Origin: a virus
Lineage: Duplodnaviria > Heunggongvirae > Uroviricota > Caudoviricetes
Reading direction: 5' to 3' (one strand)
IMG/VR virus record: IMGVR_UViG_2737471818_000002
Coordinates: 1-42,138 of that record
DNA: 42,138 nt
The position numbers and the translations under genes are program-made. How positions within the stretch are numbered: the stretch's first letter is position 1; every line of letters begins with the position of its first letter. A model generated the notes under the pieces. The model saw only the letters and a list, made by a program, of their open reading frames with translations, was not told where the DNA came from and made no database searches. Shown here piece by piece: positions 27,096 to 31,017 of the stretch.

Positions 27096-27382
27096 GACTT
27101 AATCTTCCCCTCCTTCAGCAGTATCGCCTGCGTCCTGATCACGCCTTCGAGGTGGTAAAGTCTGGCGTCTTTGTTGTCGAGGTTATGGGTGCGTCGGTCG
27201 ATTTCATCGTGACACGCGCTACAAGCCCATGCGCCGATCATGTCGTCAGGTTTCATTCCCGTTCCGCAAATTCCAGCCATCCGGTAATGTGCCAGAACTG
27301 TAGTTTCAGGATTTCCATTGCATATGCCGTAAATACGTACCTGGCATTCTCTTCCGCGCGCTTCTTTGCGTAGGTTAGCCAT
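27092..27382 (-). CDS. YbcO-like (DUF1364) nin-region protein
   Basis: 96-aa ORF; MANLRKEARGRECQVRI.G.CNGNPETTVLAH...CSACHDEIDRRTH matches recalled DLP12 YbcO. Confidence 0.6.
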   Translation of the reverse strand: MANLRKEARGRECQVRIYGICNGNPETTVLAHYRMAGICGTGMKPDDMIGAWACSACHDEIDRRTHNLDNKDARLYHLEGVIRTQAILLKEGKIKS

Positions 27383-27767
27383 GACTTCTCCCCCATTTCT
27401 CTTGGCATCTCCTCAACCACACTCGCATATTTTGGCTGGTAATATCGGTATGCTCTCCGCTGTATTCATTTTGTGAGTGCTTGCATCTCACATAAACAAA
27501 TACGGCAAGCAATGGATATGCGAATAACAAAATAAATAACAGAGCTGTAGCAACAGATACTTTCACAAAAAATGCAGGCAACTCTCTGACCTGATAGTCT
27601 GGAAAATCCAAGAATTCATCGATTATGTTGTTAGCAACATTGGTAGTTGCTATACATGCGACTGACAGACAATCAAAATAATTAAAGTCATATCCAGCCG
27701 CAGCAGCCCATGTTGGATTGTCTTGAAAATGTTTAAACGTTATTTGTCCGTATCGGCTAATCACCAT
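27375..27767 (-). CDS. Hypothetical membrane protein in AT-rich nin-region segment
   Basis: 130-aa ORF; one strongly hydrophobic helix (VKVSVATALLFILLFAYPLLAVFVYV); clearly lower GC than neighbours. Confidence 0.4.
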   Translation of the reverse strand: MVISRYGQITFKHFQDNPTWAAAAGYDFNYFDCLSVACIATTNVANNIIDEFLDFPDYQVRELPAFFVKVSVATALLFILLFAYPLLAVFVYVRCKHSQNEYSGEHTDITSQNMRVWLRRCQEKWGRSHG

Positions 27768-27942
27768 CGTCTTCTTCCTCGTACATTGAGCTATTCGGAT
27801 CGCTCATCAGTTCTGCACAGCAGTGCTCACACACGTGAACTTCCAGCACACGCAGCTTCTGACCGCAGTTAGCGCACGTTAAAGCTCGCTCGACGCTTTC
27901 TTTCTGGTATTGGAGGTATTGGGATAGGCTAAGCATTAACAA
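27757..27942 (-). CDS. ninF: NinF-like protein
   Basis: ESVERALTCANCGQKLRVLEVHVCEHCCAELMSDPNSSM matches recalled lambda NinF. Confidence 0.7.
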   Translation of the reverse strand: MLMLSLSQYLQYQKESVERALTCANCGQKLRVLEVHVCEHCCAELMSDPNSSMYEEEDDGD

Positions 27943-28873
27943 CCTCCATACAAACTTTCACGAATGCCGTTGCTACTTCTGCATTGATTGCGTTTCCATA
28001 TCCAATAATTCGCTGATCTTGATTGCGCTTTGCCATTCCTCCCAGTGTGGACTTGCCTCGTCCCAAGCTTTTGGCAATGCCATTAACCATCGGGAATGAG
28101 CCGGGTCTAACTGGACGATATTTTTCATCTCTACAGTAAAGCCAGTCTGCATCTCTCCAGAAGCCGTTAACCGGTAATGGGTACATAGCTTCACCGTCCC
28201 GGGAAGTTTCAAGCAGATTCTTGGGGTTCCGCTCTTGTCTTTTCCGCTGTAGCAATGCGTTGAACCTGTTGCATCGTTCGCTAAAGGAGTTTGCCATCCA
28301 GCTAGTCTCACGCATCCAGATAGGTTCTGAATTCCCCTGCGCGTTTCTGGCTGAAAGTTGATATTTGTCGTTGGAGTAGGCCACCCAATACAATCGCTGC
28401 CTGATGTGCGGAGAACCGAAGCCCGCAGCGCAAATATCGGTACCTGCAGAGGTGTAGTTCGCACCTTCCAAGTCAGTTTGTACAAGGTCGAGCCAAGCGA
28501 GGCCGTCTGCGCTTGCAACCTGTTCGCCAATAACGATGCCAGGATTGCATTTTTCAATAAGCCAGAAGAATGCCGGCCATAAGTGCCGCTCGTCATCAAC
28601 CCCTTTTCCTTTGCCTGCCGAGCTGAAAGGTTGGCATGGGCAACTTCCTGTCCAGACACTCTTGTTGTCTGGCCATCCTGCTTTTCTAAGTGCATAGCTC
28701 CAAACTCCGATTCCTGCAAAAAAGTGGTGCTGGGTAAATCCTCGCAAATCACCTGGTGTGACATCTTCAATACTCCTTTCATCTACATAACCGGGGGCAA
28801 TTTCTCCAGCGTCAATTAAGTTACGCAGCCATTGCGCTGCATACGGATCTATTTCGTTGTAATACGCAGTCAT
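27929..28873 (-). CDS. Orphan DNA (cytosine-5) methyltransferase
   Basis: C5-MTase motifs in canonical order: FAGIG (I), PCQPFS (IV), GEQV (VI), RQR (VIII), GYGNAI (X); start placed at the Met with GAGGA RBS; no adjacent restriction gene. Confidence 0.7.
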   Translation of the reverse strand: MTAYYNEIDPYAAQWLRNLIDAGEIAPGYVDERSIEDVTPGDLRGFTQHHFFAGIGVWSYALRKAGWPDNKSVWTGSCPCQPFSSAGKGKGVDDERHLWPAFFWLIEKCNPGIVIGEQVASADGLAWLDLVQTDLEGANYTSAGTDICAAGFGSPHIRQRLYWVAYSNDKYQLSARNAQGNSEPIWMRETSWMANSFSERCNRFNALLQRKRQERNPKNLLETSRDGEAMYPLPVNGFWRDADWLYCRDEKYRPVRPGSFPMVNGIAKSLGRGKSTLGGMAKRNQDQRIIGYGNAINAEVATAFVKVCMEVVNA

Positions 28874-28875
28874 CG

Positions 28876-29052
28876 TCATTTCCTCGCACGATGTCTTAGC
28901 CACCGGATATCCCACAGGTGAGCCGTGTAGTTGAAGGTTTTTACGTCAGATTCTTTTGGGATTGGCTTGCGTTTATTTCTGGAGCGTTTCGTTGGAAGGT
29001 ATTTGCAGTTTTCGCAGATTATGTCGGTGATACTTCGTCGCTGTCGTCTCAT
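28876..29052 (-). CDS. ninD: NinD-like protein
   Basis: [30 protein letters not shown] matches recalled lambda NinD; start overlaps the ninB stop. Confidence 0.6.
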
Positions 29053-29565: not shown

Positions 29566-31017
29566 TCAGAATCCTCCTTTCTTCTTGGATTGCGGTTCCT
29601 CGCGTTCACGGCGGCGCATTTCAGCAGACTGTTGGTCTGTGTCATAAATAGCGCCATTTGCCTGAATGCAATACACCGTGCCGGTATTGCCATGACGGTT
29701 GAGACGAAGGATTAGTTCGGTTTCACCAGGTGGAACACTGTCATCAAAAGCACCTTCCCGATGGATCCCCACCCAATAATCGCAATCCTGTTCAATCTGC
29801 CCTGTATCGCGCGAGTCACTTGGTAATGGGCGTTTATTGGTTCGGCTTTCCAATGCGCGGTTAAGCTGTGTCAGAAGCACAACAACGCAATCAAGCTCTT
29901 TGGCAAGGTTCTTCAGTCCTTTGGTGATCATGCCGTATGCAAGGTCGTTGCGATCGGCCTTTTCAGCGGTCATTAGCGTCAGGTAATCGACCAGAATCAT
30001 GCCAACGCATCCTTTTTCTCGTTTGATTCGACGGCTTTCGCTGACGATTTGAGCCAGAGATAATCCCGGCGTGTCGTCGATGTAAAGCAGGTCGATTTCA
30101 CTCAAGCGATTGGCTGTTTCGATCGCCCTGTTGAAGTCACCATCGTAATCACCCTGATAGCCGTCATCAGCGTCATTTGTCGCCGGAAGGTAAAAAATAT
30201 TTGGGTTAACACCTGACTTCTGCCCTACCAGTTTTTCCAGTATCTGGTCACCTGGCATTTCAAGGCTGAACATCAGAGCGGGCTTTTTCTCATGCACTGC
30301 GCAGTTGATTGCCATCTGGCTGTATAGCGTCGTTTTCCCCATCTTAGGGCGAGCGCCAATGACAAACAGAGAGCCTTTCACCAGACCTTTCGGTGACAGC
30401 ATCCTGTCCAGCGATGGGATCCCTGTGCTCATTCCTCGTTGTTCGCCTGACGGGTCAAATCGCTTCTCAAGGTCGCTAACCCAGTCTTCCATGACCTCAC
30501 CAAATGAGCGAAGGCCGCGACGCGATCCGGTTTTTGCATGGTCTGTCAGTTGCGTGAAAATCGCCTGAATAGCTTCGTACTTCTGCGTCGCAGTCATTCC
30601 GTTGCGGGAATAGAGCAATTCCGTCGCTTCAGTCATGCGGTTGATGGCGTAGCGTTCCATTGCGGTTTCACGAACCTGCATTGCATAGGCAACGATGTTT
30701 GCTGCGCTTGGCGTGTTCTTTGCGATCTCAGCGATATAAGCAAAACCGCCAACAGACACCGTTAACGATTTGCGCTCCAGTTCATCGAAAAGCGTCAGGC
30801 CATCTACTGGCTTTTGCTCCCGGTGCATTCTGGTTATTTCTTCGAAAAGGATTTTGTGTGGTCGGCTGTAAAATGAATCGGGCTTCAGCATCGCCAGAAC
30901 TTTCTGGACGCGCTCACTGCTGTCATCATCCAGAAGCAATCCACCAATCACCGCCTGCTCTGCCTCGATGCTATGGGGCGGCGCATAAAAATTATCGGTC
31001 ATCGTGTTCACCCTCAC
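29566..31017 (-). CDS. Replicative DNA helicase, DnaB-like (P22 gene 12 type)
   Basis: 483-aa ORF; Walker A (GARPKMGKTT) and DnaB-family architecture; follows the initiator gene. Confidence 0.9.
   Translation of the reverse strand: MRVNTMTDNFYAPPHSIEAEQAVIGGLLLDDDSSERVQKVLAMLKPDSFYSRPHKILFEEITRMHREQKPVDGLTLFDELERKSLTVSVGGFAYIAEIAKNTPSAANIVAYAMQVRETAMERYAINRMTEATELLYSRNGMTATQKYEAIQAIFTQLTDHAKTGSRRGLRSFGEVMEDWVSDLEKRFDPSGEQRGMSTGIPSLDRMLSPKGLVKGSLFVIGARPKMGKTTLYSQMAINCAVHEKKPALMFSLEMPGDQILEKLVGQKSGVNPNIFYLPATNDADDGYQGDYDGDFNRAIETANRLSEIDLLYIDDTPGLSLAQIVSESRRIKREKGCVGMILVDYLTLMTAEKADRNDLAYGMITKGLKNLAKELDCVVVLLTQLNRALESRTNKRPLPSDSRDTGQIEQDCDYWVGIHREGAFDDSVPPGETELILRLNRHGNTGTVYCIQANGAIYDTDQQSAEMRRREREEPQSKKKGGF

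Follow-up and report, generated by a model that had tools for sequence, protein, structure and literature searches.

Two overlapping reading frames in the nin region

The DNA analyzed here (the window) is a stretch of 42,138 nucleotides (nt) from a virus of the Caudoviricetes (IMG/VR virus record IMGVR_UViG_2737471818_000002), and the element under study is a methyltransferase gene in its nin region together with a second open reading frame (ORF) that overlaps this gene in another frame. The initial annotation, made from the letters alone, had proposed an orphan C5 cytosine methyltransferase at this place and had listed a second long ORF on the same strand. Both ORFs are present in the ORF list of the window (frame A, 27929–28873; frame B, 27973–28782), and the strand, which had been left unstated, is the minus strand. 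The match to PF00145, the motifs and the neighboring genes confirmed that a gene of the C5-methyltransferase family lies in the nin region of a lambdoid prophage. The two frames and the start signal of frame B are as follows.

27929–28873, minus strand: frame A ORF, C5 cytosine methyltransferase-like, 314 amino acids (aa), ATG start (ORF list; PF00145; phrog_363; Prokaryotic Genome Annotation Pipeline (PGAP) in E. coli YP3)
27973–28764, minus strand: frame B, embedded +1-frame gene, 263 aa, isoelectric point (pI) 8.9 (ORF list; tblastn; cluster P0121)
28773–28778, minus strand: Shine–Dalgarno (SD) sequence AAGGAG of frame B, 8 nt upstream of the ATG at 28762–28764, within frame A codons E32-R33-S34 (GAA AGG AGT)

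Frame B is shifted by +1 relative to frame A and lies entirely within it, the overlap covering 792 of the 945 nt. The ORF remains open from an upstream ATG at 28782, which corresponds to 269 aa; a start at 28764 gives 263 aa, the same length as cluster P0121 (99% identity; found in raw assemblies only, not in NCBI).

Two sets of homologues were analyzed, one of 83 unique homologous genes retrieved with frame A and one of 80 bacterial genome loci retrieved with frame B, and the codon analysis was carried out on 42 sequences with less than 80% identity. The SD sequence and the ATG of frame B are written within the invariant ERSIEDV of frame A (GAA AGG AGT ... GAT GTC). An SD-like element together with an ATG was kept in nearly all of the 83 unique homologues; the element is AAGGA or GGAG at a distance of 8–9 nt, or else AGGA lying 11 nt from an ATG that is located four codons further downstream. 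The codons concerned were largely fixed, with E32 encoded by GAA in 95% and D37 by GAT in 97% of the 42 divergent sequences. A further in-frame ATG of frame B, with the SD-like sequence AAGGAAAAGGGG, is located at 28594–28596 and matches the start position of the +1 ORF of Gordonia phages described below. These signals suggest that frame B is translated.

Frame B is open across homologous loci

When the codons of the window gene were shuffled synonymously, none of 200 shuffles reached the 269 open codons observed in the +1 frame (mean 103, maximum 195). The longest open +1 stretch in the other 23 window ORFs of at least 200 aa was 27–140 codons (6–46% of the gene), compared with 269 codons (82%) here. 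Across the unique homologues retrieved with frame A, the +1 frame was open for 235–338 codons in 81 of the 83, the other two having a single nonsense codon each, and the +2 frame for 34–96 codons; both frames were intact in two loci outside the motif pattern (L040 and L050).

Part of this openness could arise without selection on frame B. The protein sequence of frame A lowers the number of +1 stops to be expected (shuffles averaged about 8 stops, with a longest open run of about 124 codons), and for 21 of the 83 genes the observed length was attained by one or more of the 200 shuffles. Both points favor the view of the initial annotation, namely a monomeric orphan C5-methyltransferase whose +1 ORF is a by-product of composition, codon bias or nucleotide constraint.

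Loci retrieved with frame B came from Enterobacterales, Burkholderiales, Rhizobiales, Rhodobacterales, Sphingomonas, Xanthomonadales and Desulfovibrionales, among other taxa. Frame A was open in 79 of these 80 loci, and the median open length of the third frame was 23 codons. The lone locus with a broken frame A (161 codons) was found in the Type-B symbiont of Plautia stali (L125), where frame B is open for 266 codons; the break probably reflects gene decay in a symbiont genome. Among phage records, 244 carried a full-length A-type N-terminus and 252 carried frame B. Since retrieval with frame B only returned loci with an open frame A in all cases except this one, frame B was never found outside A-type genes: in all loci examined, it lay inside A-type (C5-methyltransferase) genes. 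Every full-length A-type gene examined carried frame B.

Conservation of frame B as a protein and at the codon level

A tblastn search with the frame B protein matched 246 phage records, and each match lay under an annotated methyltransferase gene. The E-values extended to 1e-79 in the nearest relatives and were about 1e-34 to 1e-39 in phages of Vibrio, Pseudomonas and Xanthomonas. At every locus whose annotation was read, the match was shifted by +1 from the frame of the catalytic motifs, and Rhodobacter phages gave a weaker match in the +1 frame, which was open. Identity to the window's proteins was 40–56% for frame B (in the Vibrio, Pseudomonas and Xanthomonas phages) where it was 55–64% for frame A. 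Synonymous shuffling gave null identities of 27–32% for frame B, and the observed alignment scores lay above every shuffle, by roughly 6–15 standard deviations.

The codon analysis showed that many frame A codons lying under motifs of frame B are fixed, examples at a frequency of 1.00 being F83 TTC, P111 CCT, V119 GTT, L130 CTT, A150 GCG, V255 GTT and P257 CCC. Near-fixed codons were observed at motif IV (P82 CCT, 0.98; F83 TTC, 1.00; S84 AGC, 0.88) and over the LGSTLYKLTW segment of frame B (D129 GAC, 0.98; L130 CTT, 1.00; V131 GTA, 0.93; E136 GAA, 1.00). Four-fold degenerate codons of frame A vary freely upstream of frame B, with a mean entropy of 1.64 bits compared with 0.98 bits under frame B (Mann–Whitney, p = 0.005), and nearly fixed four-fold codons numbered 19 of 41 under frame B and 0 of 8 upstream (p = 0.016).

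In the linker of frame A (gene nt 495–675), conservation calculated in successive segments was 0.42–0.54 for frame B and 0.27–0.34 for frame A, and the length differences there amount to gains or losses of entire GWxTP modules in frame B. The most conserved part of frame B is the motif IX-like element at 28063–28110, at 0.86 (LDPAHSRWLMALPKA), where frame A over the same DNA reaches 0.74. Openness, identity above the shuffle nulls, fixed synonymous codons and a linker better conserved than in frame A together show that frame B is under purifying selection. The overlapping ORF had been put down as probably an artefact, or else as the possible mark of a frameshift. The first view is contradicted by a frame that is open in about 170 loci and that behaves as a conserved coding frame with its own ribosome-binding site; the second, in the sense of a sequencing error or a pseudogene, does not agree with two frames that are intact over their full length, in the window as well as in nearly all homologues.

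Methyltransferase motifs, fold and motif order of frame A

The recognizable elements of frame A are listed below in the order of translation.

28847–28864, minus strand: motif II-like YYNEID at the extreme N-terminus, invariant in alignments A1 and A3
28700–28723, minus strand: motif I-like FFAGIGVW (FxGxG loop), between motifs III and IV (sequence, alignment and AlphaFold2 (AF2) model)
28622–28645, minus strand: motif IV SCPCQPFS with the catalytic cysteine C80, invariant; frame B reads ANLSARQ here
28517–28528, minus strand: motif VI GEQV (ENV equivalent; Glu kept, Asn replaced by Gln) (sequence, alignment)
28394–28408, minus strand: motif VIII HIRQR (RxR) (sequence, alignment)
27998–28369, minus strand: linker and small region, residues about 169–292, poorly conserved and rich in insertions and deletions except for NGFWRDADWLYCRDEKYRPV; low-confidence AF2 model
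27986–28003, minus strand: motif X GYGNAI, followed by the C-terminal helix (sequence, alignment and AF2 model)

PF00145 matched frame A with 52.7 bits (cut-off 22), the aligned profile positions being 64–202 of 324, that is, motifs IV–VIII only. The NCBIfam model TIGR00675 (dcm) gave 42.9 bits, under its cut-off of 100.65, and its alignment started at profile position 23, past motif I. The match to phrog_363 was strong (E 5.5e-91), and the sequence match to M.HhaI also spans motifs IV–VIII. A Foldseek search with the AF2 model of frame A returned M.HaeIII and M.HhaI as the best matches, with DNMT2 and others also returned.

Residues C80, E117, R158 and R160 are invariant in alignments of 16 and 54 sequences, as is the GNAI of motif X, and the catalytic PCQ cysteine (C80 in SCPCQPFS) is intact. 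Motif IX was not recognized in frame A. Between motifs VIII and X, the sole conserved stretch is NGFWRDADWLxCRDGKWRPVEPG. The AF2 model has a mean predicted local distance difference test (pLDDT) score of 72–92 in 10-residue blocks over residues 1–168, with lower values at 81–100 and 151–160; residues 170–294 score about 30 and the C-terminal helix about 86. The order of elements in the model is a strand at residues 3–6, a helix, a strand at 28–31, a strand at 48–51 (motif I-like), a helix at 55–64 and a strand at 73–76 (PCQ). In this family, the FxGxG unit, FFAGIGVW plus the helix after it, thus appears to be the beta1-alphaA unit of the Rossmann fold in a transposed position. To our knowledge, no such permutation of motif I has been described for C5-methyltransferases.

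The initial annotation had credited the protein with the full canonical motif series. This is only partly correct, because the motif I-like element follows motifs II/III and motif IX is unrecognized: motifs II, I-like, IV, VI, VIII and X are present, motif I is displaced, motif IX is missing from view and the dcm score lies below its cut-off. Frame A was also considered as an N-terminally truncated canonical enzyme, and this was rejected; all homologues in the 16- and 54-sequence alignments begin with AYYNEID, and ninE ends directly upstream.

Features and annotation of frame B

Frame B proteins are basic, with a median pI of 9.7, compared with 5.8 for the acidic to neutral frame A proteins. 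Four parts can be distinguished: a variable part of the first 45 residues or so; a conserved segment with ANLSARQAKE..., a helix, a GSTLYKLTWK hairpin and LRASVxRTS; GWxTPxxxD modules, which number one to four among homologues; and a C-terminal element, RLTxxGE...QLNPAHSRWLMGLPxxWD. The corresponding features in the window are listed here.

28468–28497, minus strand: conserved segment LGSTLYKLTW, predicted helix plus hairpin, overlapping WLDLVQTDLE of frame A (AF2 hairpin residues 96–116, block pLDDT 62–77)
28372–28386, minus strand: first repeat module GWPTP (W128, P129, T130 and P131 nearly invariant in alignment A2)
28285–28299, minus strand: second repeat module GWQTP, followed by LANDATGSTHCYSG (alignment)
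28063–28110, minus strand: motif IX-like element LDPAHSRWLMALPKAW (conservation; B-profile alignment)

The frame B profile aligned LDPAHSRWLMALPKAW to motif IX of gp70 of Mycobacterium phage ShiLan (RLAPAFSEWMMGWPAGW) with 11.7 bits, and weakly to motif IX of M.HhaI; Pfam detected no motif IX in frame B. The DNA of 28063–28110 on the minus strand, like that of the homologues, encodes both SRWLMGxPxxW of frame B and a C-terminus of the PLVxGxxxRVGxLRxYGNAI type in frame A. Each of these C-terminal styles also occurs in single-frame phage C5-methyltransferases, the former in the ShiLan type and the latter in the Fitz type. It may be, speculatively, that the two styles are related through the dual-coding segment.

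A search with the frame B profile retrieved 15,856 cluster representatives at E <= 1e-3, and the top 150 were all stand-alone proteins of 244–487 aa. In the PHROGs database, frame B matched only phrog_1008 and phrog_31772, both named "DNA methyltransferase" without a stated basis. Most phage records list the methyltransferase coding sequence alone over the DNA of this locus. Frame B is annotated in some GenBank/RefSeq records, such as those of phages K1G (ORF30, "putative Mte8-like protein") and K1ind1 ("DNA methyltransferase") and of several Paenibacillus phages, and in Xanthomonas phage PhiXhv-2 the annotated coding sequence is the B-frame ORF itself. Where called, frame B is labeled "hypothetical", "Mte8-like" or "DNA methyltransferase". 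"Mte8-like" was considered as the identity of frame B and set aside as a mere annotation label on ORFs of the K1 phages, with no description behind it. Full-text literature searches returned no paper on this dual coding and none analyzing frame B.

Embedded, split and single-chain relatives in other phages

Methyltransferase genes whose motif I is in the normal place, at the N-terminus, were also found to have a B-like +1 ORF. In gp54 of Paenibacillus phage Fitz (L175, 1267–2304), the +1 ORF comprises 236 codons, matches the B profile with 53.9 bits and ends with GQLNPEWVECLMGFPIGWTD. Further examples occur in the methyltransferase genes of Lactobacillus phage Lc-Nu, Bacillus phage yong1, Bacteroides phage BS-TP4 and Vequintavirus and Krischvirus coliphages. 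In this wider group (Fitz, and also L177, L178 and L180), the B-like end reads (L/I)NPxxxxx(L/M)MGFPxxWT. Since methyltransferase genes of Firmicutes and Bacteroidota phages with a normal motif I carry a B-like +1 ORF, dual coding extends beyond the permuted family.

In ShiLan gp70 (L173, 1321–2490), a single frame contains the catalytic motifs, three copies of LLPTPxAxDGxGG, motif IX (RLAPAFSEWMMGWPAGW) and motif X (GNGVVPQQ). This single-chain gene and gp58 of Gordonia phage Gudmit (L179, 1084–2469) keep +1 ORFs of 153 and 245 codons, respectively, with LLPTP repeats. Because these +1 ORFs themselves hold LLPTP repeats, the repeat modules are spread over two frames, and dual coding may be represented by the ShiLan and Gudmit forms in an intermediate or fused state.

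A split form was observed in Gordonia phages GordDuk1 (L174, 1288–2161) and Gmala1 (L181, 988–1861), which differ at 46 of 874 nt (5%). Their catalytic ORF (gp28) stops just after motif VIII, and a +1 ORF of 191 codons, which starts inside gp28 behind the SD sequence in AGGAAGGG, contains LLPTP, motif IX and motif X. Only the last 69 codons of this +1 ORF are annotated, as gp29 ("hypothetical protein" in Gmala1). In the Gordonia lineage, the enzyme can have motifs IX and X only if the +1 ORF is translated. The links to actinophages are taken as supporting leads and not as proof of homology, because similarity in the +1 frame over motifs IV–VIII is partly imposed by frame A.

Genomic context

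The genes of the region are arranged, in the order of transcription, as DnaB, NinB, NinE, the methyltransferase, NinF, a 130-aa ORF of no known family, YbcO (DUF1364), RusA, NinH and the antiterminator Q. No endonuclease gene adjoins frame A, whose neighbors are DnaB, NinB and NinE on one side and NinF, the 130-aa ORF, YbcO, RusA, NinH and Q on the other, and for this reason the gene had rightly been called "orphan". Homologues lie next to replication genes, integrases, terminases and nucleotide-metabolism genes, in many phage contexts that are unrelated to one another.

Upstream of its ATG, frame A has no stop codon as far as a GTG at 28915. The ninE stop codon (TGA) shares the sequence ATGA (28876–28879, minus strand) with another possible start, the ATG at 28879; this start would give a frame A protein of 316 aa with two extra residues (MT), the form represented by cluster P0001. 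The ATG at 28873 lies 8 nt after GAGG, an SD spacing better than that of the ATG at 28879. In the near-identical prophage of E. coli YP3, PGAP calls the same 945 nt "DNA cytosine methyltransferase" and frame B is uncalled. The exact frame A gene is rare, being present in 11 of 5,426 complete E. coli genomes.

Two differences between the prophages were observed in passing. The 130-aa ORF between ninF and ybcO (window 27375–27767, minus strand) has a hydrophobic stretch by eye and gave no Pfam or PADLOC match; at its position, E. coli YP3 has a KilAC antirepressor gene. The DnaB-like helicase gene is in three pseudogene pieces in the YP3 prophage (L001, 2553–4946), and the window copy (29566–31017) is intact.

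A candidate two-polypeptide methyltransferase

The two frames have complementary parts, in that frame A is without a recognized motif IX and frame B has a motif IX-like element that aligns to a single-chain phage methyltransferase. We consider it rather probable that A and B form one orphan two-polypeptide C5-methyltransferase similar to M.EcoHK31I, with the recognition repeats and motif IX on B. The motifs and repeats point to frame B as the gene that probably encodes the missing DNA-recognition subunit of the enzyme. Frame A would provide the catalytic large domain, with the S-adenosylmethionine (SAM) pocket, the catalytic loop and a motif X helix tethered by a passenger linker. Frame B, translated from its own SD sequence and ATG inside A, would supply the parts that belong to the small domain in one-chain enzymes, namely the recognition modules and motif IX, and the two products would assemble into a single orphan C5-methyltransferase. 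Such an architecture implies that A and B interact and that activity requires the two together.

Its expression would come from the nin-region transcript in the lytic phase, and by methylating phage DNA the enzyme would protect it from host restriction; the expected product is 5-methylcytosine and the expected role anti-restriction. In lambda, nin-region genes are transcribed from PR only once the repressor is lost. Because of this, an effect on host gene expression in lysogens, which the initial annotation had offered as the other possible role, appears less likely.

Several observations weigh against a two-polypeptide enzyme. Similarity of frame B among distant phages is partly forced by the conservation of frame A, as the shuffle null of 27–32% already indicates. 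The +2 frame, too, gives better alignments than the shuffles do, a result that constraint on all three codon positions would explain; for this reason the assignment of the coding frame rests on openness and start signals. The motif IX assignment is a short alignment (11.7 bits), over DNA that is also constrained by frame A. Frame B has no match in Pfam, NCBIfam, PADLOC or the PDB in single-sequence and profile searches, and the AF2 model of B alone is mostly disordered (mean pLDDT 45.5), a result that fits either a fold dependent on its partner or a non-globular protein. Frame A retains a conserved C-terminus (NGFWRDADWLxCRDGKWRPVEPG...RVGxLRxYGNAI) and, given this region, could be active alone. 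Finally, 2 of 87 viral loci (L032 and L078, both IMG/VR contigs) have one nonsense codon in frame B with frame A intact, which could reflect recent inactivation, sequencing error or dispensability of B in some settings. An example is STH*YSG, where relatives read STHCYSG.

A broader reading is more tentative, and as a whole we hold it to be possible but somewhat doubtful. Phage and prophage C5-methyltransferases of a very large superfamily (about 15,900 protein clusters; phages of Proteobacteria, Firmicutes, Bacteroidota and Actinobacteria) would nearly all possess frame B as a second subunit, one that is ancient and has mostly escaped annotation. The number of xPTP modules would set target specificity, and few same-strand embedded genes of prokaryotic viruses would match frame B in length or spread. 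The embedded (window prophage), split (GordDuk1) and fused (ShiLan) forms would then be alternative resolutions of one ancestral dual-coding gene.

Alternative explanations

The explanation that competes best with a two-polypeptide enzyme is that frame B is a real embedded gene whose product works independently of the methyltransferase, as a DNA-binding regulator, as an anti-restriction or anti-defence factor, or as a modulator that inhibits or times A. Such a role would suit a conserved, basic protein that is largely predicted to be disordered and whose conserved N-terminal segment of about 125 aa has no counterpart in one-chain methyltransferases; it would also suit a frame A whose C-terminal region, up to and including motif X, is conserved in its own right. 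It counts in the same direction that accessory proteins are frequent products of overprinted genes in viruses. We regard an independent product as unlikely nonetheless, for frame B was found in A-type genes only and all full-length A-type genes examined have it, the xPTP repeats and the motif IX-like element sit in frame in a single-chain actinophage methyltransferase, and the +1 ORF of GordDuk1 and Gmala1 holds the very motifs, IX and X, that are missing from the catalytic ORF.

Expression as one polypeptide by programmed frameshifting, from A by +1 into B after motif VIII and by −1 back to A before motif X, has little probability in our judgment. The DNA order of catalytic motifs (frame 0), xPTP repeats with the motif IX-like element (+1) and motif X (0) does reproduce the linear order of ShiLan gp70. 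Frameshifting would leave unexplained why both full ORFs are kept open, A through a weakly conserved linker of more than 100 codons and B over the roughly 125 codons that precede the putative shift site and are themselves under constraint; the conserved SD sequence and ATG mark independent initiation. No slippery heptamer and no stop-codon-stimulated shift site was seen by eye at the junctions, which were not scanned systematically, and we know of no gene with two programmed shifts, which also counts against this mechanism. Hybrid A-B-A sequences were compared with Pfam as a double-frameshift test, and no gain was obtained (46.3 versus 52.7 bits for the window, 61.6 versus 61.8 for K1ind1).

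Hypermodification by A/B, with a group other than methyl being transferred or with a target other than double-stranded phage DNA, is similarly improbable. C5-carboxymethyltransferases exist in phages (PMC12783734). CmoX, a natural DNA cytosine C5-carboxymethyltransferase (PDB 8yf3), was among the Foldseek matches of frame A, and the ENV motif reads EQV; CmoX, however, ranked no higher than M.HhaI and M.HaeIII and shares only the common fold, and no Cx-SAM synthase (CmoA-like) was found among the nine neighbors scanned with Pfam, no dedicated search of the window having been made. A carbamoylmethyl lead from the literature was also followed and proved unrelated.

A by-product of composition, codon bias or nucleotide constraint, to which the stop-poor coding sequence of A, the absence of a known domain in B and its low AF2 confidence would be congenial, is very hard to reconcile with a +1 frame that is open and a +2 frame that is closed in about 170 independently diverged loci, with the conserved SD sequence and ATG, with motif-level conservation of B showing protein-typical substitutions, with better conservation of B than of A in the linker, with wobble positions fixed only at B motifs and with whole repeat modules gained or lost in the B frame.

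Significance

In the one near-identical E. coli prophage record that was inspected, the RefSeq (PGAP) annotation omits a conserved gene of 263 codons. If frame B is the recognition and motif IX subunit, frame A alone should be inactive. Were this true, codon-optimized synthetic versions of such "orphan methyltransferases" would silently destroy frame B, which would affect the definition of target motifs and the use of these enzymes as tools. About 790 nt would encode two conserved proteins, including a catalytic core, making the locus a strong natural case for evolution under dual-coding constraint, and it bears on the interconversion of split, fused and embedded enzyme architectures. For the phage, the role of the locus would remain anti-restriction: expressed during the lytic phase, it would protect phage DNA.

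The near-complete embedding, the displaced motif I, the modular partner bearing repeats, the very wide distribution and the absence from standard annotation appear, judging from the full-text searches, to be undescribed.

Comparison with known systems

Lee, Kam and Shaw reportedly described in 1995 that the beta ORF of EcoHK31I is nested in the alpha ORF, in a different frame, and that both products are needed in vitro; the beta polypeptide is said to have 176 aa, smaller than the 263 aa of frame B. M.EcoHK31I (YGGCCR) consists of two polypeptides, the larger with motifs I–VIII and X and the smaller with motif IX (PMC3404938). By this published description, the window locus resembles it in having motifs I-like, II, IV, VI, VIII and X on A, and the motif IX-like element of B may be the counterpart of its motif IX. 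The two differ in that M.EcoHK31I belongs to a restriction–modification system, whereas the window gene is an orphan and lies in the nin region of a prophage, and in that the target-recognition domain of M.EcoHK31I is predicted in the large subunit, whereas the repeat modules of the window are in B. Window frame A has, in addition, a displaced motif I, and frame B a conserved N-terminal segment. A search of plasmid records with frame B matched phage-like plasmids and megaplasmids only, and no match was recognizably named as an EcoHK31I system.

In M.AquI, the two ORFs reportedly have only a short overlap at their junction, compared with 792 of 945 nt in the window. M.AquI (CYCGRG) is a split C5-methyltransferase whose alpha subunit carries motifs I–VIII and whose beta subunit carries the distal variable region and motifs IX and X; inactive fragments of other C5-methyltransferases can also reassemble into an active enzyme (PMC3404938). 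The Gordonia relatives GordDuk1 and Gmala1 are like M.AquI in having motifs IX and X on the second ORF, whereas motif X of the window (GYGNAI) is on the catalytic polypeptide A.

Frame A shares with M.HhaI and Dcm the PCQ cysteine, the Glu of motif VI, the RxR of motif VIII, the GNAI of motif X and the catalytic fold. Unlike these enzymes, it has a non-canonical motif order, no recognizable motif IX, a region between motifs VIII and X with a pLDDT of about 30 and a dcm score below the cut-off. ShiLan gp70 has the same order of modules as the window locus: catalytic motifs, xPTPxAxD repeats, motif IX (L-x-P-x-F/H-S-x-W-(L/M)-M-G-x-P-x-x-W) and motif X (GNxV/I). In gp70 these lie in one frame and one polypeptide, whereas in the window the repeats and the motif IX-like element are in a separate +1 ORF.

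For the embedding itself, lambda Rz1 offers a parallel, since it lies inside Rz in the +1 frame on the same strand, has its own start and encodes a product that works with the product of its host gene. The location of Rz1 within Rz is mentioned in PMC9409062. Like Rz1 in Rz, frame B lies wholly inside frame A, on the same strand, in the +1 frame and with its own start. In contrast to Rz1, which has about 60 codons, frame B has 263 codons, lies over the catalytic core of an enzyme and occurs in phages of several bacterial phyla.

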